A stretch of 29,411 nucleotides of DNA from an uncultured Victivallales bacterium. GTDB taxonomy: Bacteria > Verrucomicrobiota > Kiritimatiellia > UBA8416 > CAYOBW01. Made by a program: the position numbers and the translations under genes. Positions 2,775 to 24,448 of this stretch are shown here, in pieces. The notes below the pieces were generated by a model. That model did not search any database. It worked only from the letters and a program-made list of their open reading frames with translations, and was not told the origin of the DNA. Where the stretch lies: contig CAZKRK010000046.1 of the NCBI GenBank assembly GCA_964555035.1, positions 1-29,411 of the forward strand. The letters are read 5' to 3'. Each line of letters opens with the position of its first letter. Position 1 is the stretch's first letter.

Positions 2775-2782
2775 AAGACAGC

Positions 2783-7589: not shown

Positions 7590-7738
7590 TCCTTGTAGGT
7601 TACTGGGGTTCCTGGTCCCTCCCGGACAAGAAATCGGATACTAACGAAAAGGAGCCGAACAAATCAAGCACCGGTTCGCTGAGTCCGCGGCCGCGGGCGC
7701 ATCTCGATCTGCTGCACTTGCCGAGTGGCCCCCACCGG

Positions 7739-7784: not shown

Positions 7785-7856
7785 ATTGTCAATCCGCCCC
7801 GTTTGTGCCATTTTTCGAGCATTGTGAAGACCTCCACCGAGAACATTGCGGCCGGG

Positions 7857-10800
7857 ATGAGGCAGAACCGGCTCTTTCTCGACCTCGAAACAACCCGGAG
7901 CGGACGCATTCGCAAAGTCGGCGCCGTATTCGGCGATCGTGTTGTGTCGTCGGCACACGACGGGGGCGTGCAACGGGCGCTGTCCATTCTGGACCGAATA
8001 GCCGGCCAGGCCGAGTGCCTCGCGGGACACAACATCGTCGATCACGACCTGCCTGCTCTTCGCCATTGCCGTGCGGACTTGAAACTCCTGCAGGTTCCCG
8101 TGATCGATACGCTCTACCTCTCGCCGATCTGCTTTCCCGAAAATCCCTATCATTGCCTGGTCAAGGACTACAAGTTGGTCTCGGAAACCGTCAGCGATCC
8201 TGTCGAAGACGCCCGCCTGGCCGCAACGCTGTTCGAGGACGAAATCGCGTCTCTGATCGGTATCCGAGAAAGCAGTCCCGAGCTTTTCAAAGCGTTGCAC
8301 CTGCTGACCACAAAGACATCGCCGTCGGATCCCGGATCTCATGCGACCGGAATGAGGCATCTGTTCCGGAGCCTCGGGGCCGACGCGGTCACCGATGACG
8401 CGCTCGAGTGTGTCCGCGGGATGGCGGCGCAGTACGGCTGTCGAACGGCAGCCGTACGCTTGGACCACACGAACCTCACGTCCGCGCAGAAGTGCTGGGC
8501 GCTGGCCTTCGTGCTGACCTGGTTGCGCGTGTCCGGCTCGGATTCCGTCATTCCGCCCTGGGTGCGGCACCGCCACCCGTCCGTCAGCGTATTCCTTCAT
8601 GCGCTCCGGGATGTTCCTTGTGACGACGCGGATTGCCGGTATTGTGCCGAAACCCACAGTCCCGAGAAGCAGCTCAAGCGGTTCTTCGGGTTCGACTGCT
8701 TCCGACCCACGCCGCATGATGGGAACGGCGGCAGCCTGCAACGCCGCATCGTGTTGGCGGGGATGCAGGGAGAATCGCTCCTGGCGATCCTGCCGACAGG
8801 CGGCGGCAAGTCACTCTGCTACCAACTGCCCGCACTTGTCCGCAGCGTCCGGCGAGGGCAGTTGACGGTCGTGATCTCCCCCCTGCAGGCGTTGATGAAA
8901 GACCAGGTGGACGGGCTGCAACGCCGCACCGGCCTTGAAAACGCCGCCGCGCTCTACGGCCTTCTGACGCCGCCCGAGCGTGGTGACGTACTCCGACGTC
9001 TCAGGACAGGTGACATAGCGGTTCTGTACGTATCTCCGGAGCAACTCCGCAACGCTTCCTTCACCAGGGCAATCTCGCAGCGGGAGGTCGGTTGCTGGGT
9101 CGTCGACGAGGCGCATTGCCTGTCGAAATGGGGACACGATTTCCGCCCCGACTACCTCTACATCGGCCGCTTCATGCGCGAGCTCGCCAAGCGTCAGGGA
9201 TGCCCCTTGCCTCCCGTTGCCTGTTTCACCGCCACGGCCAAGCGCGATGTCGCCGAAGAGATCATGGCCTACTTTCAACGTGAGACGGCCATGCCCGTTG
9301 CCCTCTACCAGGGCGGCGTCGAACGCGAGAACCTGTGTTTCGAAGTGCAGACAGTCAGCGCGCCGGCCAAGCTGGGGCGAATCGACGAGTTGCTGCACGA
9401 CCGATTGGATGCGAACGGGAACGAAGGAAGCGCGATCGTCTTTCGTACTACGCGCCGGCTCGCCGAAGAAACGGCCGAGTACTTGTGCAACCAGGGGTGG
9501 CAGGCGGCGTTCTTTCACGCCGGCATGACGCCGCCGGAAAAGAAGCGCACGCAGGACGCGTTTCTCGACGGCGAGCTGCGCGTGATCTGCGCGACGAACG
9601 CGTTCGGCATGGGGATCGACAAGGACGACGTCAGGCTTGTCGTGCACGGCGATTCGCCGGCTTCGATCGAAAACTACCTGCAGGAAGCCGGCCGGGCGGG
9701 CCGTGATCGCGGCCGTGCCGACTGCGTGTTGCTCTATGACGAGGAGGACTGCGAGCAGCAGTTCCGTCTCGGCGCCTTTTCAGAACTGAGCCGGCGCGAT
9801 ATCGCCCAGATTCTGCGCGGGCTCCGTAAAGCCACCCGCACGCACGGCTCGGACAGCGTCGTGATCACGACCGGCGAGCTCATGCGCGACGAGGATGTCG
9901 ACACCACATTCGGGCCCGAAGACCTGTCGGCCGACACCAAAGTACGCGCCGCGATGTCCTGGCTCGAACGTGCCGGCTTCGTCGAACGCAACCAGAATCG
10001 CACCAACGTCTTTCAGGCGCGCCTCCTGGTACGCTCCACCGGGGAGGCGGAGGAGAAGCTCGCGCAGCTCGGCCTGTCCGACGCGGAGTCCCGGCTCTGG
10101 CTCGCCATCGTGCGTGAAATGATCAATGCCGGGGAAACCGACAGCCTGACCGTAGACGGGTTGGCTCTGCTGCCTGAATTCCAAGGCTATCTGAAGACCG
10201 GGGCGGAGTTCATACCGCACCATGTCGTGCGCGAGGGACGCAGCCAGGAGTATCTGAGTTCAAAGGTCCTCAAGGTCCTTAACTCCATGACGAACGTCGG
10301 GATCATGAAGAAGGATACGCTGCTCACCGCGTTCATTGCCTACAAGGTGGCCAACCACTCGCGCGTGCGTTTCGATCGGGTCTGCGCGAGCGATCGCGAA
10401 ATGCTGAAGGTGTTGATGGAAGAAGAGCCCGATCCGGAAGGCTGGCTGCCGCTCAATCTCCGTCTGCTGAACCAGACATTGCTGGATCGCGATGTTTCCG
10501 CGTCACCCCCTTTCCTGCGCAGGTTGTTGCGCAGCTTGAGCGAGGACGGCAAAGGGTTCTCGGGACAAAGGGGCAGCATCGAGTTGCGCCACGTCGGCCG
10601 CGATGCCTATCGGGTTCGGCTGCGGCGCGAGTGGGCACAGATCGCGGAGCTTGCCGAACGCAGGCGTCGCGTGGCCGGTGTGCTGCTCGACGCGATTGTC
10701 TCCAAAGTGCCGTCCGCCACTCCGCCTCGAGCGGACCTCCTCGTGGAGTTCTCTTTCGAAGAACTGACCGCCGCGCTCAACCGGGATCTCGCTCTGCGCT

Positions 10801-13073
10801 CGGACGTCCGCGACATGCAGGCCGCCATCGAACGGGGACTCATGTTCCTGCACGAGCAGAATGTCATTGTCTTGCAGCAAGGACTGGCGGTGTTCCGCTC
10901 GGCCATGACCGTTCGTGTGCTGCCTGAATCGAAAGGGCTGCGCTACACGCAGGACCAGTACCAGGCGCTCGAGCACCACTACCGCGAACGTGTGTTCCAG
11001 GTGCACGTCATGAACGAATACGCCCGGTACGGGATCGAGAAGATCCAGGAGGCGTTGGCTCTGGTTGTGGCATACTTCACAATGGAGAGGGAAGCCTTCA
11101 TTGCCCGCTTCTTCGGATCACGCCGCGAGCTCTTGGAACGTGCAACGACGGCACGCTCATACCGTCGGATTGTCGATGCCCTGGGCAACCGCGAACAGAT
11201 CCGCATCGTGACGGCGCCGCTCAACAAGAACATGCTCATCCTGGCGGGACCCGGATCGGGAAAGACGCGCACCGTCGTCCACCGGTGCGCCTACCTGTTG
11301 CGCGTGAAACGCGTGCGCCCCTCTTCCGTTCTCGTCTGTTGCTTCAACCACAAGGCAGCGCTCGAATTGCGCAGACGCCTCGCGGAGCTTGTCGGCCGCG
11401 ACGCCTGCGGCGTCACGGTTCAGACATACCACGGATTGGCCCTGCGACTGCTGGGGTTCTCGTGCAGCGCGATGAAACCGGACGCTCGCGATTCGCTCGA
11501 CTTCGACAGGTTGATCGTGGACGCCGTGGACCTTCTTGAAGGCGGAAAGGCCGCGGCTGGCCTCGAATCCGACGAAACGCGTGACCGGCTCTTGGCGGGA
11601 TACGAACACATCCTCGTCGACGAGTATCAGGACATCGACGAGGCGCAGTACCATATGATCGGCGCAATCGCCGGGCGGACCCTTGAAGATGGCGATCGCA
11701 AGCTCACCATCCTTGCCGTCGGAGACGATGACCAGTCCATCTACGGTTTCCGCGGCGCGAACGTCACGTTCATTCGCCGTTTCTGCGAAGACTTCGAGGC
11801 CGCCACACACCACCTCGTCGAGAACTACCGGTCTACCCGCTACATCATCGAAGCGGCGAACAGCGTCATTGCCCGCAACCGTGATCGAATGAAGTGCGAC
11901 TTGCCTATTCGCGTTGACGAAGGCCGCCAGCTTTCCCACCCCGGGGGGGCGATTGCCTCACTGCATCCGGAGACAAACGGACGCGTTGCCGTCGTCTCCG
12001 TGCGGGATGACGCCGCACAGGCTGTCGCCGCCGGGACCGAGATTGAGCGGCTTCGGACCCTTGGCGCGAAAGACTGGTCTCGAACGGCAATCCTCTCGCG
12101 AACGCGCCGCGATTTGTCGCTCGTACGCGTCGCGTTGGAGGCGAAATCGATTCCGGTCCAATGGCCTCTGCAGCGCAACAAGCTGCCCTCGATCTACCGA
12201 ATGCGCGAGGTCCATCGTGCTCTCGGCACACTCCGCGAGATGCGAAGCAGCAACAGAACGGCATCGGAGCTCTTCGAGCGCGTCGTCATGCCACCCGGTT
12301 CTTGCGGCAACGCGTGGGCGGGCATGATCGAATCCCTCTTGAGCGCATGGCAGGACGAAACCGGCAACGCCAGCCTTCCCGTTGGTGCTTGCGTCGATTT
12401 CCTCTACGAGTCGCTCGCACAGCGCCGGAGAGACGAACAGTTTGGCGTCGGCGTCGTCCTGAACACGGTCCACGCGGCCAAGGGAACGGAGTACGACCAC
12501 GTTATTCTTTGCGGCGATTGGTCCAATGGGAGCAATGCCGCGGACATCGAAGAAGAACGCCGCGTCTTCTACGTCGGCATGACACGTGCGCGGCATTCGC
12601 TGTGCATTCTCGATCGCGCCGATACGCGCAACCCGTTCCGTGGAGAGCTGGTTGGCCCTTGTTTCGCCCCGCGACATGAGATGGGCCCCGCGAACGGCAA
12701 TCTCGCCTATCGCGACTACACGCTGCTTGGTCTCGATGACATGTTCCTGGACTTTGCGGGCCGGCAGCCGGCCCGCCACCGCGTTCACGAGGCTCTGTCC
12801 GAGCTGAAGCCCGGAGCATCTCTGCAGGCACAAGCGCAGGATGGCCGCGTCTGGCTGGTCCATGGGGCAGGGACAACGATCGGCGCTTTGTCCGCACAGG
12901 CGACAGAACTCTGGCGCGATCGCCTCGACGACATCGACTCGATCCGCGTGGTCGGAATGTACACGCGCCTGCGCGAGGACATCGGCGACAGGAACTTCCT
13001 TGCCCGCATCCGCTGCGACTCGTGGGAAGTCCCGGTCTGCGAGGTCCGCTCCATGCCGGCCGGGCAGGACTGA
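7857..13073 (+). CDS. Giant multidomain DNA helicase: N-terminal DEDDh 3'-5' exonuclease, RecQ-family helicase core, and C-terminal UvrD/PcrA-type SF1 helicase (1738 aa)
   Basis: Exonuclease motifs are Exo I LFLDLETT, Exo II GHNIVDHDLPAL and Exo III DPVEDARLAATLF. RecQ motifs are PTGGGKSLCYQLPA (motif I), VVDEAHCLSKWGHDFRPDY (DEAH plus the RecQ signature) and FHAGMTPPEKKRTQDAFLDGELRVICATNAFGMGIDKDDV, ending at QEAGRAGRD (motifs IV-VI). UvrD motifs are AGPGSGKT (I), ILVDEYQDID (II), VGDDDQSIYGFRGA (III), ENYRSTRYI (IV), VHAAKGTEYDHV (V) and VFYVGMTRARHSL (VI). The start is placed at MRQNRLFLDLETT so that Exo I lies at the N-terminus. The ORF track starts it at 7725. Confidence 0.85.
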   Translation: MRQNRLFLDLETTRSGRIRKVGAVFGDRVVSSAHDGGVQRALSILDRIAGQAECLAGHNIVDHDLPALRHCRADLKLLQVPVIDTLYLSPICFPENPYHCLVKDYKLVSETVSDPVEDARLAATLFEDEIASLIGIRESSPELFKALHLLTTKTSPSDPGSHATGMRHLFRSLGADAVTDDALECVRGMAAQYGCRTAAVRLDHTNLTSAQKCWALAFVLTWLRVSGSDSVIPPWVRHRHPSVSVFLHALRDVPCDDADCRYCAETHSPEKQLKRFFGFDCFRPTPHDGNGGSLQRRIVLAGMQGESLLAILPTGGGKSLCYQLPALVRSVRRGQLTVVISPLQALMKDQVDGLQRRTGLENAAALYGLLTPPERGDVLRRLRTGDIAVLYVSPEQLRNASFTRAISQREVGCWVVDEAHCLSKWGHDFRPDYLYIGRFMRELAKRQGCPLPPVACFTATAKRDVAEEIMAYFQRETAMPVALYQGGVERENLCFEVQTVSAPAKLGRIDELLHDRLDANGNEGSAIVFRTTRRLAEETAEYLCNQGWQAAFFHAGMTPPEKKRTQDAFLDGELRVICATNAFGMGIDKDDVRLVVHGDSPASIENYLQEAGRAGRDRGRADCVLLYDEEDCEQQFRLGAFSELSRRDIAQILRGLRKATRTHGSDSVVITTGELMRDEDVDTTFGPEDLSADTKVRAAMSWLERAGFVERNQNRTNVFQARLLVRSTGEAEEKLAQLGLSDAESRLWLAIVREMINAGETDSLTVDGLALLPEFQGYLKTGAEFIPHHVVREGRSQEYLSSKVLKVLNSMTNVGIMKKDTLLTAFIAYKVANHSRVRFDRVCASDREMLKVLMEEEPDPEGWLPLNLRLLNQTLLDRDVSASPPFLRRLLRSLSEDGKGFSGQRGSIELRHVGRDAYRVRLRREWAQIAELAERRRRVAGVLLDAIVSKVPSATPPRADLLVEFSFEELTAALNRDLALRSDVRDMQAAIERGLMFLHEQNVIVLQQGLAVFRSAMTVRVLPESKGLRYTQDQYQALEHHYRERVFQVHVMNEYARYGIEKIQEALALVVAYFTMEREAFIARFFGSRRELLERATTARSYRRIVDALGNREQIRIVTAPLNKNMLILAGPGSGKTRTVVHRCAYLLRVKRVRPSSVLVCCFNHKAALELRRRLAELVGRDACGVTVQTYHGLALRLLGFSCSAMKPDARDSLDFDRLIVDAVDLLEGGKAAAGLESDETRDRLLAGYEHILVDEYQDIDEAQYHMIGAIAGRTLEDGDRKLTILAVGDDDQSIYGFRGANVTFIRRFCEDFEAATHHLVENYRSTRYIIEAANSVIARNRDRMKCDLPIRVDEGRQLSHPGGAIASLHPETNGRVAVVSVRDDAAQAVAAGTEIERLRTLGAKDWSRTAILSRTRRDLSLVRVALEAKSIPVQWPLQRNKLPSIYRMREVHRALGTLREMRSSNRTASELFERVVMPPGSCGNAWAGMIESLLSAWQDETGNASLPVGACVDFLYESLAQRRRDEQFGVGVVLNTVHAAKGTEYDHVILCGDWSNGSNAADIEEERRVFYVGMTRARHSLCILDRADTRNPFRGELVGPCFAPRHEMGPANGNLAYRDYTLLGLDDMFLDFAGRQPARHRVHEALSELKPGASLQAQAQDGRVWLVHGAGTTIGALSAQATELWRDRLDDIDSIRVVGMYTRLREDIGDRNFLARIRCDSWEVPVCEVRSMPAGQD

Positions 13074-13139
13074 GTTCGTCGATCGCTCCGCCTATGCCGC
13101 CCCTCCGGGGCTTGTTTCCATGCTCGACGCATGTGCGGC

Positions 13140-13251
13140 AAACGTAGGTCCGATTTGCAATCGGACCCAACTCCGGTCGGGTCTGGTCAGCCGTGGCGTT
13201 ATCTGAGGCAACCAGCGGGGTTGGGTCCGATTGCAAATCGGACCTACGTTT
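13140..13251. repeat. MITE-like element with perfect 32-bp TIRs (13140-13171 and 13220-13251), each with an inner hairpin ggtccgatt-tgc-aatcggacc
   Basis: IR-L aaacgtaggtccgatttgcaatcggacccaac is the exact reverse complement of IR-R. The spacer is 48 bp. The inner hairpin has the same architecture as the 1856-1984 element, with two compensatory stem changes (c:g to t:a and g:c to c:g). It lies between the convergent helicase genes. Confidence 0.75.
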
Positions 13252-13350
13252 ACCGCTCACGCACGTTCCGGCCCTCGGGGAGTCACGAAGCATCCGCTTC
13301 TTCCGCACGAAGGTGTCACAGTTGTTTCCGAGAGGTAAGGTAGTCTGGGC

Positions 13351-16122
13351 CTACGGTCGCGCCAACTCCGCCTCGACGCGCGCGACGAGGTCCAGTCCCT
13401 CTTGGAGAGCACCATCGCCGTCGCTTCCGCCGCCGTCGAAGGCGGCCAGGGCAGAGACGAGGGCTGCGGGTTCTGTCGGGAGCTCGGAACCGTCGCCGTC
13501 GGGCTTTGTTCCGGGACCGTGGTGCAGGACGACGACCGCTTCGCGCCCCGCTCCCAGAACCGTCGCAAGGTGCGGGAGTGCCTGCTCCGCAAGACCCACA
13601 CCCGCCAACGCCTCGACGGCCTTGCGCTCGGCTGCGGTCGTTGCCCAGACCTTGCGTGCCGCGGCACGGTGGAGCTTCGGCTTGGGCCGTTCCCGCGGGG
13701 GCAATGGCGTGTAGCCGTCGGCGGCATGTACCGTATCGATGTCGGCGGACAGCGTGAGGATGCCCATTTCCTGAAGCCGCAGCAGCATCGCGTGCATCTC
13801 CGGCGTAATGACCTCGGCCGTGGCGCCTGCCGCCTCGGCCGTATCGCGAAGCGCATCGAGGTCCGTTCCGGGGCGCGACACGACTACCGTCCCGCCGGTT
13901 TTGGCGTTGCGTTCGATGCCGAGGATGATGTCCGCGTGGCGCGCCGTGAGTTCTTCCTTCAGTGTCCTGGGTTTCTCTTCGCGAGCCGGTGGGGCAGGCG
14001 CCACGGGCTCCCCGCCCAGCAATTCGCCGACGCGCGCCGCAAAGGCCTGGCGACCGGTTTTGCCGCTCGGCCGTTCCTCGAACGCGGCCCCGTCCAGCAC
14101 GGAGTCGGCCAGCGCGGTCTTGTACGCCAACTTGTCGAGCATGGCGCTTTCGATCGAGCGTTCCGCGACCAGGTTGACGACGCGCACGCTTCGCTTCTGG
14201 TGCTTGCGCCAGGCCCGCGCGATGCGCTGCTCCAGCTTCGCCGGATTCCAGGGCAGGTCGAGGTTGATCACGATGTTCGCGGCCTGCAGGTTCAGACCCG
14301 CGCCGCCTGACTCGGACGAGAGAAACACGCGGCAGTCGGCATTCTGCTTGAACATGCGGATCTGCTCGCGCCGTTTCTGCTGGGGGATTCTGCCGGTGTG
14401 TTCCGCGAACCCGATTCCTTTTGCGGTCAGCAGTTCCTTTACGAGGTCGAGCATGCGCACCCACTCCGAGAATATGATGACCTTCGCCTCCGGGTCGTCA
14501 CCCAGCAGGTCGTCGAGGATGTTCTCCAGCTCCTCCAGCTTCGGACAGTCACGGCACTCGGGGTCAAGGATGTAGGGCGTGTCGCAGATCATGCGCATGC
14601 AACCCAGCAAGAGCAGAAGGCGTTCCTGCTCCTTCTTCGTCAACGGGCGCCGTTTCATGATCGAAACGAGCATGGCCACGTCGTATTCGATCTCGGCATA
14701 GCGCGCCCGCTGCTCTTTTGTCATGGAAACGAAGAAGTTCTTGTCGGTACGTTCCGGCAAGGCGTCTTCGACGTCGCTCTTGCGGCGGCGCAACATCACC
14801 GACGAGACCGTGCGGTGCAGCTTGTCCAGGTTCCTGGGGCGGACCTCGTTGTCGGAAGTGAGTTCCATAAACGCGCGCTGAAAACGGAAGAGCGACCCGA
14901 ACACGTGTGGGTCGACGAACTCGACCAACGAGTACAACTCCTCGATGCGGTTTTCCAAGGGCGTTCCGGTCAGCACGAATGCGTATGGACTGCGCACCCG
15001 CTTGATCGTTTTGGCGGTCTTCGTGGGCCAGTTCTTGATGCGTTGCGCCTCATCGAGGATGACGAGGTCCGGAACGAGCAGGCGGTTGATATCGTCCACG
15101 TCATTGCGTACCTGCTCGTAGTTGCAGAGGCTGTACGGATGCTCCTCGGCATAGAGGCGCAGGCGGGCGGGCCGCGATCCGAAGACCGGCTTGGCCTGGC
15201 GGCCGGTGAACTGCATGATCTGGTCCTCCCACTCCGCCTTGAGCGAAGCGGGGCTGACCACCAGCACGCGGCGCACGCGGCCGGACTGGCGCAGCAGCTC
15301 GGCGGCGGCAATCGCCTGCACCGTCTTGCCGAGCCCCATCTCGTCGGCCAGCAGGGCGCGACCGGTGAAAGCCAGATGTGCCATGCCCGCTTTCTGATAG
15401 GGGTACAAGGGAAGGACAACGGGGTTGTCGGTGCGTTTGGCGGCTGCCACGTCGCGATCGAAATGCCGCCGCAGCTCGTCAAGGTCCGTCCTGAACCTCT
15501 CTCGCTCGAGCCAGTAGTCGACGTGTTCGGACAGACGCACGCCCTTCCGCGCCGATGCGGTGAGCATGGCCGTGGCGCGTTCCGCGGCCGTGCACGCGTC
15601 CGTATTGCCGGCCAGGGCGAAGCCTTCATCGCCGAACAGCGACCCCACGCGCCTCTCGACCGCGGCGATGCCCGCTGCCGGCCGCAACAGGCGCAACCGC
15701 GGATTGGGTCCGCGAACGTCCATGAAAATCTCGTAGGCAGGCGATCCCGCCTTTGCCGCGCGGGCAAAGGCGCGCTTCTTGCGGTGCTGGATGAACTGCC
15801 GCACACGCTCGATGTGCTTGCAGCACCCGAGGCGGTTCATGCGGTAGTCCTGACACGAACAACTGTTCAGGTTCTCCGACAGACTCCGAATCTCGACGCG
15901 GTAGGGTTGCTCCCACTGCGTGGACGAGACCTCGAAGAGACCGTGGAAATCGTCACGCATCGCCACGCGGGTGACCTGCGCCTTTTCCTTCTCGGCACTC
16001 TCGCGCCGCAGCACGATGCTCTGCTCATCCGTCGGAAAGCCAACCCGTTTCGGTGGCCGTTTCTGGACCTGTTTGGCCTTCTTGCTTCTGCGTTTCTTCC
16101 GCGTCTTCCGTTCCAAGCTCAT
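13351..16122 (-). CDS. SNF2-family (Swi2/Snf2) DNA-dependent ATPase/helicase with an N-terminal SWIM zinc finger
   Basis: The SWIM finger is CSCQDYRMNRLGCCKH. SNF2 motifs are LADEMGLGKT (I), LVILDEAQRIKN (II, DEAQ), VLTGTPLENRIEELYSLVEFV (III), and the C-terminal helicase domain LSSESGGAGLNLQAANIVINLDLPWNPAKLEQRIARAWRKHQ. A basic N-terminal tail and an Ala/Gly-rich region of about 250 aa at the C-terminus are uncharacterised. Confidence 0.9.
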   Translation of the reverse strand: MSLERKTRKKRRSKKAKQVQKRPPKRVGFPTDEQSIVLRRESAEKEKAQVTRVAMRDDFHGLFEVSSTQWEQPYRVEIRSLSENLNSCSCQDYRMNRLGCCKHIERVRQFIQHRKKRAFARAAKAGSPAYEIFMDVRGPNPRLRLLRPAAGIAAVERRVGSLFGDEGFALAGNTDACTAAERATAMLTASARKGVRLSEHVDYWLERERFRTDLDELRRHFDRDVAAAKRTDNPVVLPLYPYQKAGMAHLAFTGRALLADEMGLGKTVQAIAAAELLRQSGRVRRVLVVSPASLKAEWEDQIMQFTGRQAKPVFGSRPARLRLYAEEHPYSLCNYEQVRNDVDDINRLLVPDLVILDEAQRIKNWPTKTAKTIKRVRSPYAFVLTGTPLENRIEELYSLVEFVDPHVFGSLFRFQRAFMELTSDNEVRPRNLDKLHRTVSSVMLRRRKSDVEDALPERTDKNFFVSMTKEQRARYAEIEYDVAMLVSIMKRRPLTKKEQERLLLLLGCMRMICDTPYILDPECRDCPKLEELENILDDLLGDDPEAKVIIFSEWVRMLDLVKELLTAKGIGFAEHTGRIPQQKRREQIRMFKQNADCRVFLSSESGGAGLNLQAANIVINLDLPWNPAKLEQRIARAWRKHQKRSVRVVNLVAERSIESAMLDKLAYKTALADSVLDGAAFEERPSGKTGRQAFAARVGELLGGEPVAPAPPAREEKPRTLKEELTARHADIILGIERNAKTGGTVVVSRPGTDLDALRDTAEAAGATAEVITPEMHAMLLRLQEMGILTLSADIDTVHAADGYTPLPPRERPKPKLHRAAARKVWATTAAERKAVEALAGVGLAEQALPHLATVLGAGREAVVVLHHGPGTKPDGDGSELPTEPAALVSALAAFDGGGSDGDGALQEGLDLVARVEAELARP

Positions 16123-16269
16123 GTGCGCCTCAATACGTTGTCCGTGAATAAGCGATGTCCGGCAAGACTAGCCATGGAGAGGGGCGGGGTGCAAGAACTC
16201 TCGCAACCCTAACGACAGAAACGTGACCGATGACGTGGGGTAGCCATAGAAGCAAGCTCGCCGGCGCTC

Positions 16270-16297
16270 AGGCTCACACCTTGTAAAGTGTGAGCCT
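16270..16297. terminator. Hairpin aggctcacac-cttgtaaa-gtgtgagcct overlapping the ArsR stop codon
   Basis: It has a 10-bp perfect stem. It is nearly identical to the palindrome at 16897-16930 at the other end of the same gene. Confidence 0.5.
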
Positions 16298-16907
16298 ACC
16301 CCTCCATGCAAGCGATTCGTACCAACTCATGCGCAAGAGGCGATAACTTCCGCGCCAGGGCGTATGTCCCGCGTTGGTTCCGGACGACAATGTCACGGCG
16401 CACCAGTTTGCTCACATGACGCTTCATCGCCGGCAGAGAAATGCCGCATCGAACAACCAGTGCCACAATCGACAACCCCGGCGAGCGATTCAGTTCCCGC
16501 ACGATCCGGATGCGTCTAGGATGTGTGAAAGCTGTAAGGTTCCGAAACGCCCCCTCGATGGCGCCTAGGCGCCTGGAAAGCTGTCGTTTCATCGCGGTGA
16601 CAAGGGCCTCGGAAAACGAGATCGTGCTGTTTGGAGACACAGTGTACACGACCCAACGACTCGTCCGCCGCGCATCCAGGATGCCTCTGGCGTTGAGAGC
16701 CCGAAGACATTGGCTCGCACTGGATTCCGATATGCCTACCTGCGCGGCGACATCGGAGACGCACTGCCGTTGATGTCGAAGCAGAAACCGCAACACAGCG
16801 AGCCGTCTCCGGTTCGCCAATGCCCGGCATGTGCGCCAAAGCGTAGGACTGAGTGAACGCGCGTTCTCCATACCATCTCCAAGTAGACACCTCAACGCCA
16901 GGCTCAC
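16296..16907 (-). CDS. Transcriptional regulator with two tandem ArsR/SmtB-type winged-HTH domains
   Basis: The first wHTH is CRALANRRRLAVLRFLL...VSDVAAQVGISESSASQCLRALNARGIL. The second is RRIRIVRELNRSPGLSIVALVVRCGISLPAMKRHVSKLVRRDIV. The track start is a GTG at 16907. An internal ATG start (MENARSL) at 16871 is possible. Confidence 0.7.
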   Translation of the reverse strand: MSLALRCLLGDGMENARSLSPTLWRTCRALANRRRLAVLRFLLRHQRQCVSDVAAQVGISESSASQCLRALNARGILDARRTSRWVVYTVSPNSTISFSEALVTAMKRQLSRRLGAIEGAFRNLTAFTHPRRIRIVRELNRSPGLSIVALVVRCGISLPAMKRHVSKLVRRDIVVRNQRGTYALARKLSPLAHELVRIACMEG

Positions 16908-16930
16908 ACGTTATAAGGTGTGAGCCTGGC
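16897..16930. promoter_or_regulatory. 13-bp-stem palindrome gccaggctcacac-gttataag-gtgtgagcctggc overlapping the ArsR start region (candidate operator)
   Basis: It is identical in core to the 16270-16297 hairpin (caggctcacac ... gtgtgagcct, loop ttRtaaRg). ArsR-family proteins bind dyad-symmetric operators that overlap their own promoters. Confidence 0.5.
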
Positions 16931-17062
16931 GTCAATCAGAAACTCGTGGCATCGGCATCCAAGCCAGGTTCCTTGACTGCGGCGACTACTACGACGTTGG
17001 TCTTGACAAGTACTGCCCACTGAGCGCTGGGATGGCAGAAGTCCTTACCTCGTGGAACTATC

Positions 17063-17170
17063 GGTGACACCATTGATTGATGATTCCCGATTGATGATTT
17101 GTGATTTTCGAAGTACTTCACAAATCATCAATCATAAATCGCTAGTCATCAATCAGACGAAGGTGTCACC
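17063..17170. repeat. AT-rich compound palindrome of about 108 bp (ggtgacacc ... ggtgtcacc) with internal gattgatgatt direct repeats and perfectly complementary arms ttgatgatttgtga/tcacaaatcatcaa around ttttcgaagtactt
   Basis: Seen directly. It is very AT-rich against a background of about 67% GC. It lies in the shared upstream region of the ArsR gene and the lipoprotein gene. Confidence 0.6.
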
Positions 17171-17360
17171 TTCATTTTCCGCGGTGCAGTCATCCCGGTC
17201 AGAGCGTAGATTCAACGTAGCCGCCCAGAGGACAAGTGTTTGCGACGAAGCCACGGTTCTGTGTGCGGCCGGGCGGGGTAAGGTTCTCTGGATGGAGTAG
17301 AAGGAAGTCCTCGTCTGTTTCCCAAAGTGCACTCACGTTTGCTCTCAACGCCGGTGTCGC

Positions 17361-17460
17361 CCACAACCCAAGTGTGGCATAGGTAGAAAAACGGGAAGGT
17401 AAGAAGATGGGAGAATTGACGGCATCATCTTTCTACCATCCCATCTTTCTGCCTATCATC
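17361..17460. repeat. Copy 1 of a 100-bp conserved structured element (the second copy is at 28361-28460)
   Basis: It shares 76 of 100 identities with 28361-28460, gap-free and collinear. It folds as an extended hairpin. The outer stem is ggtagaaaaacggg/cccatctttctgcc and the inner stem is ggtaagaagatg/catctttctacc. Each arm is a tandem duplication of a GG(Y)AGAAARATGGG-like unit. The loop contains a conserved attgaSgg. Confidence 0.6.
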
Positions 17461-17575
17461 TCCTACACAGGGCTTGGCCAGATTTCTAGTTCTTCTTGCG
17501 CCCCTCGCCCGGCTAAGCCACTACGCCTCGGCCGGGACTTCTCCCGGCAGAGGGGGGCCGCATTCGTGGGCAGTC

Positions 17576-17636
17576 CATTGATGATTGTCGATCGCCGATT
17601 GCCGATTTCTGAAGTTCGAAAACCAGCAATCAGACC
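17576..17636. repeat. Degenerate, more GC-rich relative of the 17063-17170 AT-rich palindrome
   Basis: The blocks cattgatgatt, ccgattg, gatttctgaagttcgaaaa and caatcagac run collinear with the left element. Confidence 0.4.
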
Positions 17637-17705
17637 GGACTGCGCGTCGTCGTCACTGCAGACTGAACAGTCTTTTGCCTATTCGCCCGCTGTAGGCGGC
17701 CTAGC

Positions 17706-17732
17706 GGCGGAGGACCGCCGTCTCCAGTGGCG
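17706..17732 (+). promoter_or_regulatory. 27-bp motif ggcggaggaccgccgtctccagtggcg, copy a
   Basis: The same motif, with one substitution, occurs at 20940-20966, 20 bp upstream of the membrane-protein ATG. It also occurs inverted at 20828-20849. It contains the inner dyad ggcgg-N4-ccgcc. Confidence 0.5.
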
Positions 17733-17774
17733 TCTCCGCAGGGCGCGTAGTCGCTTTCTGTGTGTAATAGGCAG

Positions 17775-17824
17775 GACAAGCCCGGCGGGGCTACTCTGAA
17801 AGTGCAGCAAATTGCAGATGCGCC
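17775..17824 (+). promoter_or_regulatory. Second copy of the aagcccggcgggg...aaRtgcaRcaaat upstream motif, 68 bp before the lipoprotein ATG
   Basis: See the 7739-7784 feature. The 13-mer is identical and the spacing to the start codon is conserved. Confidence 0.4.
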
Positions 17825-17892
17825 CAGCGGCAGCGTACGCTCATAACACTCTTGCCCCCGCCGCGCCTCTCGTGCATGCTTACCGGGAGCGC

Positions 17893-20811
17893 ATGAAAAG
17901 CAGCCCTTTCACACCTATCCGCCTTCTCCACCTCGCCGTCGCAGGCACAATCGCCGCCTGCGCCGGGGGATGTCGTGAGGAACAGGAACAGTCGCCGCGC
18001 CGGGCGTTCGAGCTCGACCTGCGCGATCGCGGAGTCGTGCTGCAGCGGATTACCTACGGGCTGCCCGAAGAGTCGACCGCACGCGTCATACGCTTCGACC
18101 GGCGCGGGTTGCTGCGCTGTGCCCTCTACCTGCGCGACAGCAGCGACGAGAACTCGTTCATATACGTGGACCACGTTGGTGTGGTCACCCGGAACGGCAG
18201 GATTGCGACGACCTTGAAGGAGTACGGGGAATTGCTGGTGACGGGCGACCAACAGGCCCTCTACATCGACGGTACGCCTTTGCCCGTCAACACAAAGGGA
18301 TGGGACACGTTCTGGGTGTCCGCTGACGAAGCCGAACCGGACGTGACCCAGAGAACGTATGCCCCCGTGGACCTGTTCGACAGCTTCATGCGCACCGAGC
18401 TGACGAACGGCTTCTGCCGCGTGACCGACGGTTCCTGGGAGCTCAAACAACGCGGCGGCGGAATGCCGACGGAGGAAGAGGACTACCACAACGCCAGTTT
18501 TCAGCGGGCCGTCAACCCCTTCTCCATCCGGGGCGAAGAGCAGGGCCGGTTGACGTACGGTGACGACGATTGGATGAACTATCACGCTGAGGCGAGCTTC
18601 TACTTCGGCATACCGCGAACGATAAGCTGGAGCGATGCAGAGAACCTGCCCGTCGAAACGGACATGCTCATCGCGCAGGGCACGACCAACGGAAACCAGG
18701 TAGCGTTCGGCTGGTCCGGGCGCCATCGCGGATTCGTCCTCATGTCCCGTAGCGGTTCGTCCCTCTGGAAGGTGCTCGAACGCTGGGGCGGCAAGCGTCC
18801 CCCGCTGACGAACTGGTGCCGTATCGGTCTGCGCATCCACGCCGGCTATATCGCCGAAGGCATGCTCGACCGCAAAGCCGTACTGCGCACAAACCTGGCC
18901 ACGTGCATTGTCGGTCCATTCCACGTCATTGCGGGAGAGGCCCCCATCGAGGCCGACACGATTCGCGCCTACTCCCTGCCGCCAAAGCCGAACCTGGGCG
19001 ATACGGCGCACGTCAAGAGCCGCTTCTTCTCGGCCAAGAAGGAGCTCGGCAAATCCCGCGACCCGACGCAGTTCGGGGAGTGGTCCAAGTCTACCAGCGT
19101 TTTCGTGGAGTCACGCGAGACCGATACCAACGGCAATCACAAGGCCGTCATCACGATGCGGGTGCCGCTCATGGGCGACTTCACGGTCGACTCGGTGCCG
19201 TTCGACGACGAGGCCGGCGCCATACCGCCGGGCCCGTACGAGTTCGCCTTCCGGATAGCCGATACAAACGAGTTCGAGGCCATCATGGAGCATCCGCCGG
19301 TCCTCTCGCTGAAGGCCAGGCTCTCAGGCACGGGCTGGGCGCTTGAAGACCTGCCGGAAGATGTCTGGCCCGCGGGCCACCGCGAATTCGCTCTCCGCTT
19401 CGCCCGGCGAAGGGCCGAGGACAACAGGATCGTCGTTCTCTGCGGCGGGTCTGCGACGCCGCTTTCGCCCCCGCTGACGGAGCCGTTGCTCGTATCGGTT
19501 GCGCGCGTGGAAAAGGGCGGCAAACCGGATTACCCGTTCCCGCAGCATCACCTCATCCGTTGCGCAAACCTCGCAAACGAGTTGTTCGAGGAAGCGCCGG
19601 CGGATTGGAGCTGGATCGAAGGCGCCTTCCGCATGGATTGCCGCTGGGCCTGCATGAACCAGTGGAATTTCATGGCGTGCGGCTCGCCCGGCATCCCCTA
19701 CATGACCAGCAAGCGGACTTTCACGGGCGACCAGGTGCACGAGTGCTTCATGTCGTTGCGGCCGGCCCAGCCCTGCGACGCGTACGACAAGGACTTCTTC
19801 TATGACCGCAAAAAGGACGGCGGTCTCAGGCTGTTCCGCGCCAACGGCGGCTGGTACAACCGACGCGATCTCAACGTCTGTTTCTGCACCAACGGCCGCG
19901 ACCCCCTTTCCGGCTACAGCATCGTGTTTGCCGGGAGAGACAACAAGGAGACGTTTCTCCTGCGCAAAGGACGCGTCGTGGCTGCCTCCCAGAACAAGAA
20001 GTTCCTCTTCCACGGCACAAGCCATTCGAGCGTTCACTGGAAATGGTGGAAGTTCACGGTCGACAAGCGTGGCGGCCGTATCCGGTGTTCGCTCAACGAC
20101 ACCGTTATGTTTGACTATCACGATCCCGAGCCGATTCCCGGGGGACACCTTGGTTTCTGGTCCGTGCGCAACGGCTTCACGCTGGCACGCGTCATTTCCG
20201 TCGCCGAATCGGTCGGTTTGGAGCCGCACGCCCTGTTCGTAGGTGACGATGAGGACAGCCCGTGGGTGCCCCTCAAGCGCGACAGCGTTGTTGTCACGCG
20301 CTCATCCGGGGCCGGACTCACCCGCGCCACCGCCACCGTAGGCGGCGGGTTCTTCGCCATGCGCTACACGCTCCCCGTTCCGGTCGATTTGAACAAAACG
20401 CCCGTCATGAAACTGCCGCTTGACATCGGCTACGAAGCGGCCGTGAATCTTCACGCCGATATCGGCGGCACCGCATACGTGATTCCCCTGACGGCGCCCA
20501 TCTCCGAGATGAAAGCGTTGCTGGCCCCGGAATTCGAAAAGGGAGAGTGTTTCAAAATCCCGACCATCGACGAAGCCGTCATTCTACAGACGCGCTACCT
20601 TCGCAACGCCCGCCTGACTCACAATCTGTTGACCGTGGACTTCGCCGCGGCCCTGGAGGAGACCGGCGAGAAGCCCGAGACGCTGGAGCTCAGGAGCATC
20701 ACCATCGGCAACAGCAGCAACCAGGGCTACCTGTTGGCCGGAGCGAACGGCAGAAACGCGGCCGGCGCATGGTACGAAGTAGGTGTGCCCACATTCCGGA
20801 CACGTCAGTAA
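17893..20811 (+). CDS. Large secreted lipoprotein (973 aa) with ConA/LamG-like (DUF1080-like) beta-sandwich signatures; function unknown
   Basis: The lipoprotein signal MKSSPFTPIRLLHLAVAGTIAAC has a lipobox. LamG/glucanase-like C-terminal strands are present (GGHLGFWSVRNGFTLARV and FGWSGRHRGFVLM). The start is placed at the internal Met. The track ORF begins at 17812. Confidence 0.65.
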   Translation: MKSSPFTPIRLLHLAVAGTIAACAGGCREEQEQSPRRAFELDLRDRGVVLQRITYGLPEESTARVIRFDRRGLLRCALYLRDSSDENSFIYVDHVGVVTRNGRIATTLKEYGELLVTGDQQALYIDGTPLPVNTKGWDTFWVSADEAEPDVTQRTYAPVDLFDSFMRTELTNGFCRVTDGSWELKQRGGGMPTEEEDYHNASFQRAVNPFSIRGEEQGRLTYGDDDWMNYHAEASFYFGIPRTISWSDAENLPVETDMLIAQGTTNGNQVAFGWSGRHRGFVLMSRSGSSLWKVLERWGGKRPPLTNWCRIGLRIHAGYIAEGMLDRKAVLRTNLATCIVGPFHVIAGEAPIEADTIRAYSLPPKPNLGDTAHVKSRFFSAKKELGKSRDPTQFGEWSKSTSVFVESRETDTNGNHKAVITMRVPLMGDFTVDSVPFDDEAGAIPPGPYEFAFRIADTNEFEAIMEHPPVLSLKARLSGTGWALEDLPEDVWPAGHREFALRFARRRAEDNRIVVLCGGSATPLSPPLTEPLLVSVARVEKGGKPDYPFPQHHLIRCANLANELFEEAPADWSWIEGAFRMDCRWACMNQWNFMACGSPGIPYMTSKRTFTGDQVHECFMSLRPAQPCDAYDKDFFYDRKKDGGLRLFRANGGWYNRRDLNVCFCTNGRDPLSGYSIVFAGRDNKETFLLRKGRVVAASQNKKFLFHGTSHSSVHWKWWKFTVDKRGGRIRCSLNDTVMFDYHDPEPIPGGHLGFWSVRNGFTLARVISVAESVGLEPHALFVGDDEDSPWVPLKRDSVVVTRSSGAGLTRATATVGGGFFAMRYTLPVPVDLNKTPVMKLPLDIGYEAAVNLHADIGGTAYVIPLTAPISEMKALLAPEFEKGECFKIPTIDEAVILQTRYLRNARLTHNLLTVDFAAALEETGEKPETLELRSITIGNSSNQGYLLAGANGRNAAGAWYEVGVPTFRTRQ

Positions 20812-20827
20812 CGCTCGGAGACTGGTA

Positions 20828-20966
20828 CTGGAGACGGCGGTCCTCCGCCGTTACGGAGCAAGGTGTTGAGCACAAACGGAAACAGAAGTGAACGAAGTTC
20901 CCGCATGTTCCACCAAGTGCGCACTCACTTGCGCGCAACGGCGGAGAACCGCCGTCTCCAGTGGCG
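20828..20966. promoter_or_regulatory. Inverted pair of the 27-bp ggcggagRaccgccgtctcc(agtggcg) motif flanking about 90 bp, immediately upstream of the membrane-protein gene
   Basis: 20828-20849 ctggagacggcggtcctccgcc is the reverse complement of the motif core. 20940-20966 is the forward copy. Confidence 0.5.
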
Positions 20967-23008: not shown

Positions 23009-24448
23009 ATGGACACGATAATCGGGCGAGAAGCGGAAAAACGAGTGCTGAGGGCGGCACTCGAATCGGGTGAGGCCGAGTTCATCGCCGTATACGGACG
23101 CCGGCGAGTGGGCAAGACTTACCTTGTCAGTCGGTTCTTCGACCGGGCCGCTTTCTACTTCGAGTTAACCGGCACGCGTGACGGGCCGCTGCACGAGCAA
23201 CTGGCGAACTTTGCGGACGTTCTTGGACGCAAGGCCGGTCTGGATTTGGCTGTGCCGAAAAGCTGGGCCGAGGCGTTTCGGCAGCTCGTTCGCGTGTTGG
23301 AGGCCCGGCCGGCCGCGGGGAAACGCGACCGAACCGTTCTCTTTTTCGATGAAACTCCCTGGCTGGCCTCACGACGCTCGCGCTTCTTGTCGGCGCTGAG
23401 CTATTTCTGGAACTCCTGGGCCGGTCGGCGCCCCGACATCGTCTTGATCGTCTGCGGTTCGTCGGCGTCCTGGATGCTGGAAAAGGTAGTGGCCGACAGA
23501 GGAGGCCTGCACAACCGTCTTACGCGACGAATTCGTCTGATGCCTTTCACATTGCAAGAGACGGAGGCCTTCTTGCGATCGCGTGGCGTGCGGCTCGACC
23601 GACGACAGATTATCGACGTCTTCATGGTGGCCGGCGGCATTCCTCAATACCTGAAGCAAGTCGAGCCGGGACGGTCGTCGGCGCAGAGCATCGATGCGAT
23701 GTGCTTCCAGCCGGATGGCTTCCTGTACGACGAGTTCGATCGCCTGTACGCTTCCCTGTTCCATGATTCGGCCAAGCACATTGCCGTTGTCCGTGCGTTG
23801 GCGAAAACGCGTTCAGGGTTGTCGCGAACGGCACTGTTGAAACGGGCCGGTCTCGCATCGGGCGGAACGTCGACACGGGTTCTGACCGCGCTCGAAGAGT
23901 CGGGCTTCATTGCCCGGCACGTACCCTTCGGCCAGAGAGTCAACAACGCGCGATACCGGCTGATCGACGAGTACAGTCTCTTCTACCTTACCTGGATGGA
24001 GGGGAAGCGGCACGACTTGCTGAGCGAGTCGTGGTCGACGCAGTCGCAGTCCCGGCGGTGGTCAGCCTGGGCGGGGTTCAGTTTCGAGGGAGTGTGTTGG
24101 AAGCATGTCGACCGGATTACAGCCGAGTTGGGCATAGCCGGAGTACAGACCAGAGCGTCGACGTGGCAGCACAGAGGCGGTCCGGGAGAACAAGGTGCGC
24201 AGATCGATTTGCTCATAGACCGTGCGGACCGATGTATCTCGATCTGCGAAATCAAACACGGTGAAGGTGTTTTTGCCATTGACCGGAAGTACGCGGCCGA
24301 ACTGAGACGCAAGCTGGACGTGTTTCGCCTGCAATCGGGCACCCGCAAGACCCTGTTTCTGGTGATGGTCACGCCGAGCGGTTGCAAGCACAACGACTAT
24401 TTCACGCAGTTGGTGACTGACGAAGTGCGTCTGGAGTGCTTGTTCTGA
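23009..24448 (+). CDS. AAA+ ATPase of the Arch_ATPase/DUF234 family (COG1672-like ATP-binding protein)
   Basis: Walker A is YGRRRVGKTYL and Walker B is VLFFDETPW. The C-terminal DUF234-like region is WAGFSFEGVCWKHV...IDLLIDRADRCISICEIK. The gene is slightly less GC-rich than its neighbours. Confidence 0.8.
   Translation: MDTIIGREAEKRVLRAALESGEAEFIAVYGRRRVGKTYLVSRFFDRAAFYFELTGTRDGPLHEQLANFADVLGRKAGLDLAVPKSWAEAFRQLVRVLEARPAAGKRDRTVLFFDETPWLASRRSRFLSALSYFWNSWAGRRPDIVLIVCGSSASWMLEKVVADRGGLHNRLTRRIRLMPFTLQETEAFLRSRGVRLDRRQIIDVFMVAGGIPQYLKQVEPGRSSAQSIDAMCFQPDGFLYDEFDRLYASLFHDSAKHIAVVRALAKTRSGLSRTALLKRAGLASGGTSTRVLTALEESGFIARHVPFGQRVNNARYRLIDEYSLFYLTWMEGKRHDLLSESWSTQSQSRRWSAWAGFSFEGVCWKHVDRITAELGIAGVQTRASTWQHRGGPGEQGAQIDLLIDRADRCISICEIKHGEGVFAIDRKYAAELRRKLDVFRLQSGTRKTLFLVMVTPSGCKHNDYFTQLVTDEVRLECLF

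Follow-up and report, generated by a model that had tools for sequence, protein, structure and literature searches.

An uncultured Victivallales bacterium carries, in the 946-bp spacer (16872-17817) between two divergent genes, a 108-bp compound palindrome at 17063-17170, and the question that this locus raises is whether the palindrome serves the genes beside it or belongs to something else. The window, by which we mean the whole 29,411-nt stretch analysed (contig CAZKRK010000046.1 of assembly GCA_964555035.1), is a metagenome scaffold (ENA ERZ23498658, scaffold_3035). The initial annotation placed the palindrome in a control region, likened it to iteron or operator arrays or to nucleation sites for nucleoid proteins, named the adjacent ArsR-type protein as a candidate regulator and offered a relic of foreign DNA as the alternative. 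With moderate confidence we arrive at another reading: the palindrome is a gene-less hairpin of heptad arrays resembling the intervening sequences (IVS) of 23S rRNA, likely a selfish or neutral passenger and not a regulator site for the ArsR-like gene or for the gene of a 997-aa protein on its other side. It is most likely a passenger because larger relatives with the same arrays carry a gene of the Pfam family PF05635 and sit between co-transcribed genes.

Architecture of the palindrome

Read directly from the sequence, the compound palindrome (copy 1) has the form in which it was first described. It is intact and gene-less; its limits come from the sequence, from the inverted repeats I1, I3, I5 and I12 and from a DNA fold, and no strand is assigned to it or to its parts. 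It is closed by a 9-bp GC clamp, GGTGACACC (17063-17071) pairing with GGTGTCACC (17162-17170), the latter followed by T-rich TTCATTTTCC. Inside the clamp lie a left array (17072-17106) of five phased 7-nt units ending in GATT (ATTGATT, GATGATT, CCCGATT, GATGATT, TGTGATT), a 16-nt centre or loop (17107-17122) and a right array (17123-17157) of five phased units of the type that starts with AATC (AATCATC, AATCATA, AATCGCT, AGTCATC, AATCAGA), one of which reads AGTC. The centre holds the self-complementary GAAGTACTTC, the mini-palindrome reported earlier, together with a degenerate sixth unit, CTTCACA. The 14-bp inner arms, TTGATGATTTGTGA (17091-17104) and TCACAAATCATCAA (17118-17131), are perfectly complementary, as had been claimed. 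The gattgatgatt direct repeats of the initial annotation are likewise real, but Tandem Repeats Finder (TRF) returns a phased 7-nt unit, five per arm, and not 11-nt iterons. Copy 1 thus combines 5 + 5 units, where the class as we delimit it asks for three or more per arm, with a GATT arm 5' of an AATC arm and a flanking clamp.

These repeats are strongly concentrated at this locus. The sequence GATTGATGATT occurs exactly at 17075 and 17089 on the plus strand and at 17123-17133 on the minus strand, with one-mismatch copies at 17130, 17144 and 17576; allowing up to one mismatch there are seven in the 29.4-kb window, six of them in the 946-bp intergenic region, against 0.28 expected, and none of 100 shuffles reached seven. 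TRF finds period 7 in the window only at 17074-17099, 17123-17155 and 17583-17607. As single-stranded DNA, copy 1 folds at -29.2 kcal/mol compared with -11.8 +/- 2.7 kcal/mol in shuffles (z = -6.46), and the predicted RNA fold is about -50 kcal/mol for either strand. The GC content, put at about 67% before, measures about 63% for the window, with a local minimum of 46%.

A dispersed family of inverted heptad arrays

The architecture recurs far outside this locus. A genome scan with both inner arms returned two metagenome-assembled genomes (MAGs): in a Planctomycetaceae MAG the hairpin lies between a response-regulator gene and the next gene, and in a MAG labelled Gemmatimonadetes a hairpin of more than 30 bp lies between an rnhB-like gene and a tRNA and shares the centre motif GATTT-NN-GAAGTAC with the window element. 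A longer form of the window centre, GATTTATGAAGTAC...ACTTCATAAATC, is found in a metagenome contig (L010). The 18-mer GATTGATGATTTGTGATT matches at least 120 metagenome contigs. At least 22 of these matches are a coding coincidence, antisense to the start of Bacteroidales rpsT (MANHKSSIKR, which by our own reading we take to be ribosomal protein S20; L019, L020, L023, L032 and at least 18 further loci), and such matches will intrude on DNA-pattern searches for the family. The other matches listed, about 100, are non-coding, and most have the architecture of the window element with at least four phased units. In all, more than 100 contigs belonging to several phyla show this heptad architecture, next to unrelated genes and inside operons; the taxonomy of the carriers is taken from the annotation strings of homologues and from characteristic gene families, and the calls of gene context are heuristic.

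In this architecture a run of GATTNNN is followed by a spacer and then by a run of NNNAATC, an order that is the same whichever strand is read. Among the matches listed there are 47 complete inverted pairs, with a mode of five units per arm and with spacers of 7-143 nt whose sequences are unrelated between elements. The unit consensus among them, with the seed excluded (251 units), is A-A-T-C-R(87%)-N-M(94%), and the polarity is strict: GATT-then-AATC is found in 34 adjacent pairs and the reverse in none. The same 753 kb hold 60 period-7 arrays of GATT and 47 of AATC, compared with 0-1 for control 4-mers matched in composition. On several contigs two or three independent elements lie a few kb apart at most, and these differ in unit order and have unrelated spacers. 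Three near-identical contigs (L079, L093 and L127) differ by whole units, which indicates slippage. In L040 (1061-1349), L050 and L028 the spacers hold a second widespread repeat, GTCATCCTGAGCGAAGCGAAGGATCTC with its complement, nested in the heptad elements. L055 (arms 1-4644 and 9553-14196) and L042, considered as autonomous elements, were rejected as foldback assemblies in which the 'two copies' are artefactual.

Pairing between the arms appears to be maintained element by element. Arms fold better with their own partner than with the arms of other elements (mean -33.2 versus -28.2 kcal/mol), and the own arm ranked in the top three in 14 of 42 elements. The 18 nt outside the arrays behave in the same way (27 elements; -6.9 kcal/mol for own flanks versus -4.8 for cross flanks), and none of 5000 permutations was as low (p<0.0002). 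Each element is therefore closed by a locus-specific stem, which may reflect either selection for a closed hairpin or insertion into the loops of pre-existing hairpins. Since a requirement for any hairpin would permit both orders of the arrays, the strict polarity constrains the mechanism.

The genes around these elements do not form a recognisable set. A frame call based on GC3 gave 7 convergent, 10 tandem and 2 divergent contexts; the elements thus occur in any intergenic setting, with a mild excess at gene 3' ends. (An analysis of context from open reading frame (ORF) boundaries was discarded as an artefact, because AT-rich arrays end every spurious frame, and the GC3 call was used in its place.) The flanking genes are unrelated housekeeping genes, among them trpB/trpA, cmk, dnaK, xseA, metF, flgG and ADOP permeases; in L030, for example, trpA and a tryptophan synthase beta-type (PALP) gene flank a gene-less element. 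The stop codon of the gene upstream is often supplied by an array, and the start codon of the gene downstream often adjoins one. Unrelated neighbours together with such abutment of starts and stops is not a regulon pattern.

Association with PF05635 genes

Some members of the family carry a gene. In L039, L102 and L110, arrays with the same 18-mer bracket a gene for a four-helix bundle of about 120 aa that belongs to PF05635, which Pfam names '23S rRNA-intervening sequence protein' and which is Avd-like; in L039, nuoE and nuoF flank the cassette. The variant heptad CATTGNN brackets another PF05635 gene, located between sucC and sucD in L025. As a side observation, L102 (3-377) and L110 (1925-2044) contain tandem modules of about 120 nt, each made of a heptad array and the last ~60 nt of the PF05635 gene (...AHELASIFIV...), which suggests serial partial duplication of the cassette 3' end by recombination or slippage between arrays.

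Because L039, L102 and L110 had been selected by their arrays, plasmids were searched with the protein as the seed. Using tblastn against 72,556 plasmids, we obtained 20 PF05635 records, from Nostoc, Planktothrix, Gloeocapsa, Pseudanabaena, Chlorohelix, Bernardetia and Treponema. About 10 of the 12 loci examined have complementary tandem 7-nt arrays on both sides of the gene, and the heptads vary by lineage: GATTTTA/TAAAATC, GATTGCC/AATCTGC, AATCCCC and AATCGTA/GATTTAC, and further GAAGGAT/ATCTTTC, GTCGGAG/CTCCGAC, GGAAAGN/CTCTCCG and AATTCAA/TTGAATT. Two 50-kb control regions were taken from Chlorohelix and Treponema plasmids, and in them all period-7 arrays with 2.6 copies or more lie beside the PF05635 gene. 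The plasmid cassettes are usually co-oriented within one operon (drmD/MmeI, DUF1156/HEPN, helicase/methylase, fabH/M20). Several of the plasmid cassettes lie within defence operons (drmD/MmeI, DUF1156/HEPN, cas2/cas1).

This association also bears on another alternative, in which replication slippage produced the arrays, without function, as a heptanucleotide microsatellite that happens to occupy both arms of a hairpin already present. Slippage of this kind would account for unit numbers that differ among near-identical contigs and for the decay of a second copy in the same spacer (copy 2, described below), and in many prokaryotes the long simple-sequence repeats are most commonly heptanucleotides, according to the passage of PMC4679880 that relays Mrazek 2007. 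We nevertheless hold this alternative to be improbable: the units within an array differ at positions 5-7 while the core is kept, unlike pure slippage, the polarity is strict, the arrays are repeatedly associated with one gene family across phyla, and the same 18-mer is present in many distant genomes.

Comparison with known elements

The 428-nt IVS in the 23S rRNA of Coxiella burnetii is a selfish element with an S23p ORF, of the PF05635 family, inside it (PMC4990558). Its bordering inverted repeats form a 28-bp stem that RNase III cuts in vitro, and two to three tandem heptamers, GACAGAT, variable between strains, lie just upstream of the ORF, with the 5' cleavage site at the first repeat (PMC4990558). 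The Xanthomonas S23p protein is a homopentameric toroid (PMC4990558), and PF05635 resembles Avd of diversity-generating retroelements (PMC10053308). Such S23p-bearing IVS (Coxiella, Leptospira, Xanthomonas; PMC4990558) share with the window element a bordering inverted-repeat stem, and with its family variable-copy tandem heptamers, which the IVS has in the arm beside the ORF; the larger relatives of the window element also have the PF05635 gene between the arms, and both kinds are regarded as selfish and are tolerated in essential transcripts. Indeed, the fold and TRF give copy 1 terminal inverted repeats that form a long stem with heptamers in it. The likeness is not complete. The window element does not lie in rRNA (Rfam finds none in the window) and is inserted between protein-coding genes, not at helix 25 or 45; it has no ORF in its 16-nt spacer; its units are GATTNNN and not GACAGAT; and 5 + 5 units make up most of its stem. 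ORF-less IVS hairpins of ~100 nt do exist.

Dispersed intergenic tandem heptamers are also known from cyanobacteria as short tandemly repeated repetitive (STRR) heptanucleotides, which reportedly go back to Mazel et al. in 1990, and in being dispersed, intergenic and heptameric the window family is alike. Arrays of the STRR kind (AATCCCC, AATCGTA, GATTGCC) are carried by the PF05635 cassettes of the Nostoc and Planktothrix plasmids. STRRs are described as direct tandem arrays in heterocystous cyanobacteria; the window element differs in that its homologues come from Kiritimatiellae, Lentisphaerae and Planctomycetes and its units are GATTNNN, not STRR1-3. To our knowledge neither inverted pairing, strict polarity, spread across phyla nor a link to PF05635 has been described for STRRs, and the literature searched did not describe them.

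Heptamer arrays that act as hairpin arms have a precedent in Haemophilus influenzae, where the (ATCTTTC)n array upstream of hmw1A is one arm of a long 5' untranslated region hairpin that is processed by RNase III (PMC12721329). The hmw1A/2A leader is like the window element in using a heptamer array as a hairpin arm with a varying repeat number, and unlike it in that only one arm is an array, the other being a G-rich stretch (PMC12721329). It also differs from the window family in being locus-specific, serving phase variation of one adhesin, without dispersal and without PF05635 (PMC12721329). Direct heptamer repeats of TAACTGA occur in marine Beggiatoaceae, Cyanobacteria and Bacteroidetes and, like the window family, are intergenic, often abut start codons and have a patchy spread across phyla (PMC4679880); unlike it, they are direct repeats of one identical unit, with an inverted partner in 1 of 170 sets (PMC4679880).

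Repetitive extragenic palindromic (REP) sequences and REPINs are short dispersed extragenic palindromes that are mobilised by RAYT and carry a GTAG/CGTC head on a 20-40-bp GC-rich palindrome (PMC3733652, PMC3116915). Like members of the window family, many of them lie within operons or at the 3' ends of genes, and pairing into ~100-nt hairpins is common. The window element, however, has no GTAG or CGTC at its ends and is 108 bp long, AT-rich and structured by heptads. Two copies were available in the 29 kb, where we saw no Y1 transposase or RAYT, and the copies elsewhere are not near-identical.

More generally, the arrays might be the terminal inverted repeats of a miniature inverted-repeat transposable element (MITE) or REPIN-like element that moves as DNA with the help of a transposase supplied from another locus. 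The family members are palindromes dispersed between genes, their inside-to-outside polarity is fixed, gene-less copies far outnumber gene-carrying ones, and the termini CCATTGAT...CAATCAGAC are common to both window copies and L004. We give this idea a slim chance all the same. There is no direct target-site duplication at copy 1 (tatc/GGTG...CACC/ttca), whose flanks are instead inverted-complementary; elements on the same contig have unrelated spacers and different unit orders and are not near-identical; and unit number varies by slippage (L079/L093/L127). Neither the window ORFs scanned nor the intervals between arrays at any locus hold a transposase, no internal sequence is shared with an autonomous insertion sequence (IS) and no IS partner was seen, and the GTAG/CGTC tag of REPs (PMC3733652) is missing.

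A further comparison is with plasmid partition sites. The ribbon-helix-helix (RHH) protein omega/ParB of the inc18 plasmid pSM19035 binds 7-bp WATCACW heptads, one dimer each (PMC9499535). Its parS sites resemble the window family in having a 7-bp unit with an ATC core, AATCACA being both the omega consensus and a frequent family unit, and in forming direct and inverted arrays in which at least four units matter (PMC9499535). Omega sites form contiguous runs of seven to ten heptads, lie at par/cop promoters on a plasmid that encodes delta and omega, and need ATCAC (PMC9499535), whereas in the window family position 6 is free, a spacer splits the arms, which always diverge with the GATT arm first, and the elements are chromosomal and dispersed. 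In copy 1 itself 1 of 10 units reads AATCACA, the 16-nt centre splits the arms, and no ParA or RHH gene is present among the ORFs scanned.

Iteron origins have 17-22 bp direct repeats by a rep gene, DnaA boxes and an AT-rich unwinding element; here the unit is 7 nt, with no rep gene and no plasmid or phage matches. We therefore find it very improbable that copy 1 is what remains of the replication origin or partition site (iterons or parS) of a plasmid or phage. It is AT-rich, repeat-rich and palindromic and does resemble the inc18 parS heptads, but plasmid, phage and viral collections gave no matches, the ORFs scanned include none for Rep, Par or an integrase, the same flanking genes occur in several independent assemblies, and the heptads are non-contiguous with 1 of 10 units fitting WATCACW. 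Of the foreign relic first suggested there remains, loosely, a probably selfish dispersed element, without similarity to plasmids, phages or viral contigs.

The omega precedent nevertheless frames a stronger alternative, in which the heptads are sites for a sequence-specific protein that coats the arms cooperatively, one dimer or subunit per 7 bp or nt, on the model of RHH omega/ParB on inc18 parS or of the PF05635 pentamer itself. The element would then be a nucleoprotein site for silencing, nucleoid organisation or recognition for mobility, which comes near the iteron or nucleation idea of the initial annotation; of that likeness the array architecture and the resemblance to inc18 7-bp heptads hold, and the local-operator part is not supported. 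We consider this protein-coating alternative rather unlikely, although a good deal speaks for it. The M-AATC-R core is conserved with one free position in a strict 7-nt register; the polarity is strict, which a hairpin alone does not need; the mode of five units per arm among the matches listed equals the subunit number of the S23p/PF05635 homopentamer (PMC4990558); the WATCACW precedent has one dimer per heptad and at least four contiguous repeats for function (PMC9499535); and paralogous upstream regions in L113 keep the array while their flanks diverge. Against it, no candidate binding protein is encoded among the window ORFs scanned, the neighbour genes are functionally incoherent, and complementarity runs into unique flanks, which protein binding does not predict. 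In addition, the heptads of PF05635 cassettes differ by lineage (GTCGGAG, GGAAAGN, AATTCAA, GATTTTA) while the complementarity of the arms is kept, which points to pairing or to co-evolving recognition and not to one conserved binding motif.

The intergenic spacer and its breakpoint

The spacer around copy 1 holds further structures. The degenerate relative noted before at 17576-17636 is a true paralogue, 77% identical over 39 nt and in register; this decayed copy 2 extends over 17570-17643 (no strand assigned; direct repeats D1, at 77%, and D2, inverted repeats I2 and I6, TRF period 7 at 17583-17607). Its outer clamp, GCAGTCC (17570-17576) with GGACTGC (17637-17643), differs from that of copy 1, its left array reads GATGATT GTCGATC GCCGATT GCCGATT, and its right arm is down to one AATC unit. 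The centre GATTT-YY-GAAGT is common to copies 1 and 2. Copy 2 folds no better than shuffles (z = -0.5).

Between the two copies, the '100-bp structured element' of the initial annotation is a hairpin at 17378-17457 with a purine-rich 5' arm, GGTAGAAAAACGGGAAGGTAAGAAGATGGGAGAA, and a pyrimidine-rich 3' arm that carries a 16-nt direct repeat, CATCTTTCTACC / CATCTTTCTGCC. Its RNA fold is -33.3 kcal/mol (z = -3.67) and it belongs to no Rfam family. Its polarity, with G in the 5' arm and C in the 3' arm, and its GAAGATG/CATCTTT motif recall the heptad arrays at the PF05635 genes of L147 and L151, so that a third element broadly of the heptad-hairpin type may be present here. Separately, a 22-nt GC-rich motif that contains a small hairpin, GGCGGAG(G/A)ACCGCCGTCTCCAG, occurs at 17706-17727 (plus), 20828-20849 (minus) and 20940-20961 (plus), three occurrences where 0.01 would be expected. 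They lie on either side of the 997-aa gene and ahead of the gene that follows it, and the motif may be REP-like or may serve the source genome as a common regulatory site. Rfam searches, at gathering thresholds over the whole window and by E-value over 16850-17850, gave only generic miRNA-like hairpin noise. A terminator scan of the spacer gave one terminator-like site, below the shuffle count. Sites for IHF, DnaA, CcrM and Fur, dif and attC were compared by eye with consensus sequences and set aside, as register or sequence did not fit.

The right edge of the array is also where related genomes part. Comparison of contigs L002, L003, L004, L006, L135, L136 and L138 places a population breakpoint between 17158 and 17159 (no strand assigned). 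L004 matches the window at 100% identity over 15837-17158, beyond which it runs into another gene, homologous to PQQ-like beta-propeller or BamB-annotated proteins; the fragment itself has no Pfam match, and the protein collection holds no identical full-length entry, the best match being 63% identical. Contigs from other samples that carry the ArsR-like gene stop at 17155 (L002, L003) and similar places, and those with the 997-aa gene begin at 17037 (L006, L135, L136), which is 17159 minus 122, and similar places. L138, which covers 16417-20883, confirms the arrangement of the window, and the flanking genes are the same in several independent assemblies. The simplest reading is one real branch point between 17158 and 17159, at the outer edge of the right array, and we infer that the 122-nt overlap (17037-17158) is the k-1 overlap of an assembly at k = 123, presumably in line with JGI practice. 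The alternative L004 junction would be a strain variant, a recombinant or a second identical copy; either way, the edge of the element is where the genomes differ.

The neighbouring genes and the operator question

By domain search, the left neighbour (16296-16871, minus strand) encodes a 191-aa double winged-helix protein of the ArsR/MarR type, and the right neighbour (17818-20811, divergent from it) the 997-aa protein, with no Pfam family above threshold. The ArsR-like protein has tandem winged-helix domains at residues ~34-78 and ~132-175 and more than 300 homologues of similar length, mostly unnamed; by their annotation strings, the named homologues of both neighbours are from Kiritimatiellae, Lentisphaerae (Lentisphaeria), Verrucomicrobiota and Planctomycetes MAGs, which suggests that the source organism is a bacterium of the PVC superphylum, probably of the Kiritimatiellia. 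The first GTG of the ArsR-like ORF (16907) is probably not its start; records for 14 contigs have the 191-aa form, which begins at 16871. Copy 1 sits 190 bp from this start codon.

Two paralogues of the ArsR-like protein, P0002 (81% identical) and P0003 (60%), lie in unrelated gene neighbourhoods, and upstream of both the heptad arrays are absent. What they keep is a different palindrome. A 28-bp palindrome, AGGCTCACACGTTATAAGGTGTGAGCCT, at 16900-16927, lies ~30-55 nt upstream of the ArsR-like ATG (16871) and has equivalents, AGGCTCGCACCTTATAAAGTGTGAGCCT and AATCACACTTCGGAAGGTGTGATC, ~40 nt upstream of the starts of P0002 (L131) and P0003 (L132), with the conserved form CACACCTTATAA[A/C]GTGTG-like. 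Judged by this conservation, the palindrome at 16900-16927 is likely the autoregulatory operator of the double winged-helix regulator family. Because the paralogues keep this type of palindrome instead, the 108-bp element is not the conserved candidate autoregulatory site.

There is thus a very slight chance that the adjacent ArsR-like regulator uses the 108-bp element as its operator, or that the element controls the divergent genes as a locus-specific site of another sort. Its divergent intergenic position, 190 bp from the regulator start codon, is suggestive, and winged-helix dimers typically use palindromic sites. But the regulator paralogues conserve the other palindrome without heptads, the element family elsewhere adjoins unrelated genes, and 108 bp is far larger than ArsR/SmtB operators, which are of the ~12-2-12 form. 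Neither the local control element nor the ArsR-type binder put forward at first therefore finds support.

Scanned large ORFs of the window include no transposase, integrase, Rep, Par, RHH or PF05635 gene. Elsewhere in the window, 7725-16122 and 23009-24448 have the look of a defence island, with a SNF2 helicase that matches ZorD/DpdE/DrmD models, a 1782-aa DEAD + UvrD fusion hit by the models for DpdF and GajB, and an ATPase of 479 aa for which the PADLOC candidate PDC-S27 gives a full-length match (E = 4e-181). To the right of the element, at a distance of 11.7 kb, is a tRNA-Pro(TGG) (28884-28959, minus strand). A cursory inspection showed neither an integrase nor a direct repeat by which the stretch between the breakpoint at 17159 and this tRNA could be an integrated island.

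Weighing the passenger reading

If the element is an IVS-like passenger, its transcription in either direction would, by analogy, yield a long interrupted double-stranded RNA stem that RNase III would cleave, uncoupling the flanking RNA segments. We infer both this cleavage and the mobility of the window element from its better-known counterparts. As DNA it would be a recombinogenic palindrome, which would explain genome variants that differ exactly at the element edge. With copy 2 and the other hairpins, the 946-bp spacer would be an accumulation zone for such elements and not a control region.

Several observations weigh against this reading. Both neighbours point away from the element, and a promoter scan found no promoter-like site in the spacer. 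The folding energy of the RNA, sense against antisense, shows no strand bias in the 10 elements between co-oriented genes (6 negative, 4 positive) and so gives no sign of selection on the RNA. There is no PF05635 signal in a six-frame translation of the whole window and no remnant of a decayed PF05635 gene between copies 1 and 2. Outside this one locus there are no other heptads in the 29-kb window, nor any in ~40 kb of contigs from related organisms, and the metagenome sample of the family was seeded with the single 18-mer. The strict G-then-A polarity and the conserved M-AATC-R core are, moreover, unexplained by a pure hairpin and fit sequence-specific protein recognition.

A tentative and, as it stands, unlikely extension would accommodate the polarity: the heptad hairpins and the Avd-like PF05635 pentamer may form one previously unrecognised mobile cassette across bacterial phyla, with the gene-less window copy mobilised or maintained in trans. 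The PF05635 protein would then recognise ~5 heptads per arm, one per subunit, and the cassette would insert into existing hairpin loops, such as rRNA helices 25 and 45 and the stem-loops between genes of an operon, where it would be tolerated because RNase III would cut it from the transcript. Our literature searches, of incomplete coverage and thus leaving novelty unproven, gave no account of inverted GATT/AATC arrays, of their polarity or of a heptad-PF05635 association, and those with literal heptad sequences returned primers and unrelated matches only.

Implications

To conclude, the results suggest a wider rule, not seen in the literature searched, by which PF05635 genes and many gene-less hairpins are bracketed by complementary 7-nt arrays of fixed polarity in the Planctomycetota/PVC (Planctomycetes-Verrucomicrobia-Chlamydiae) group, probably in Acidobacteriota, and in Cyanobacteriota, Chloroflexota and Spirochaetota, often inside essential or defence operons. 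Should the passenger reading be right, an AT-rich 'control-region palindrome' such as this one should not be annotated as an operator, and RNase III processing sites in operons would be predicted, as would recombination-prone palindromes that break metagenome assemblies. It would also give a testable handle on the nature of rRNA intervening sequences with their ORFs and of the cyanobacterial STRR heptamers. The single-cassette extension, if it were true, would go further and unite the cyanobacterial STRR repeats, the rRNA intervening sequences with S23p ORFs and the orphan Avd-like genes.

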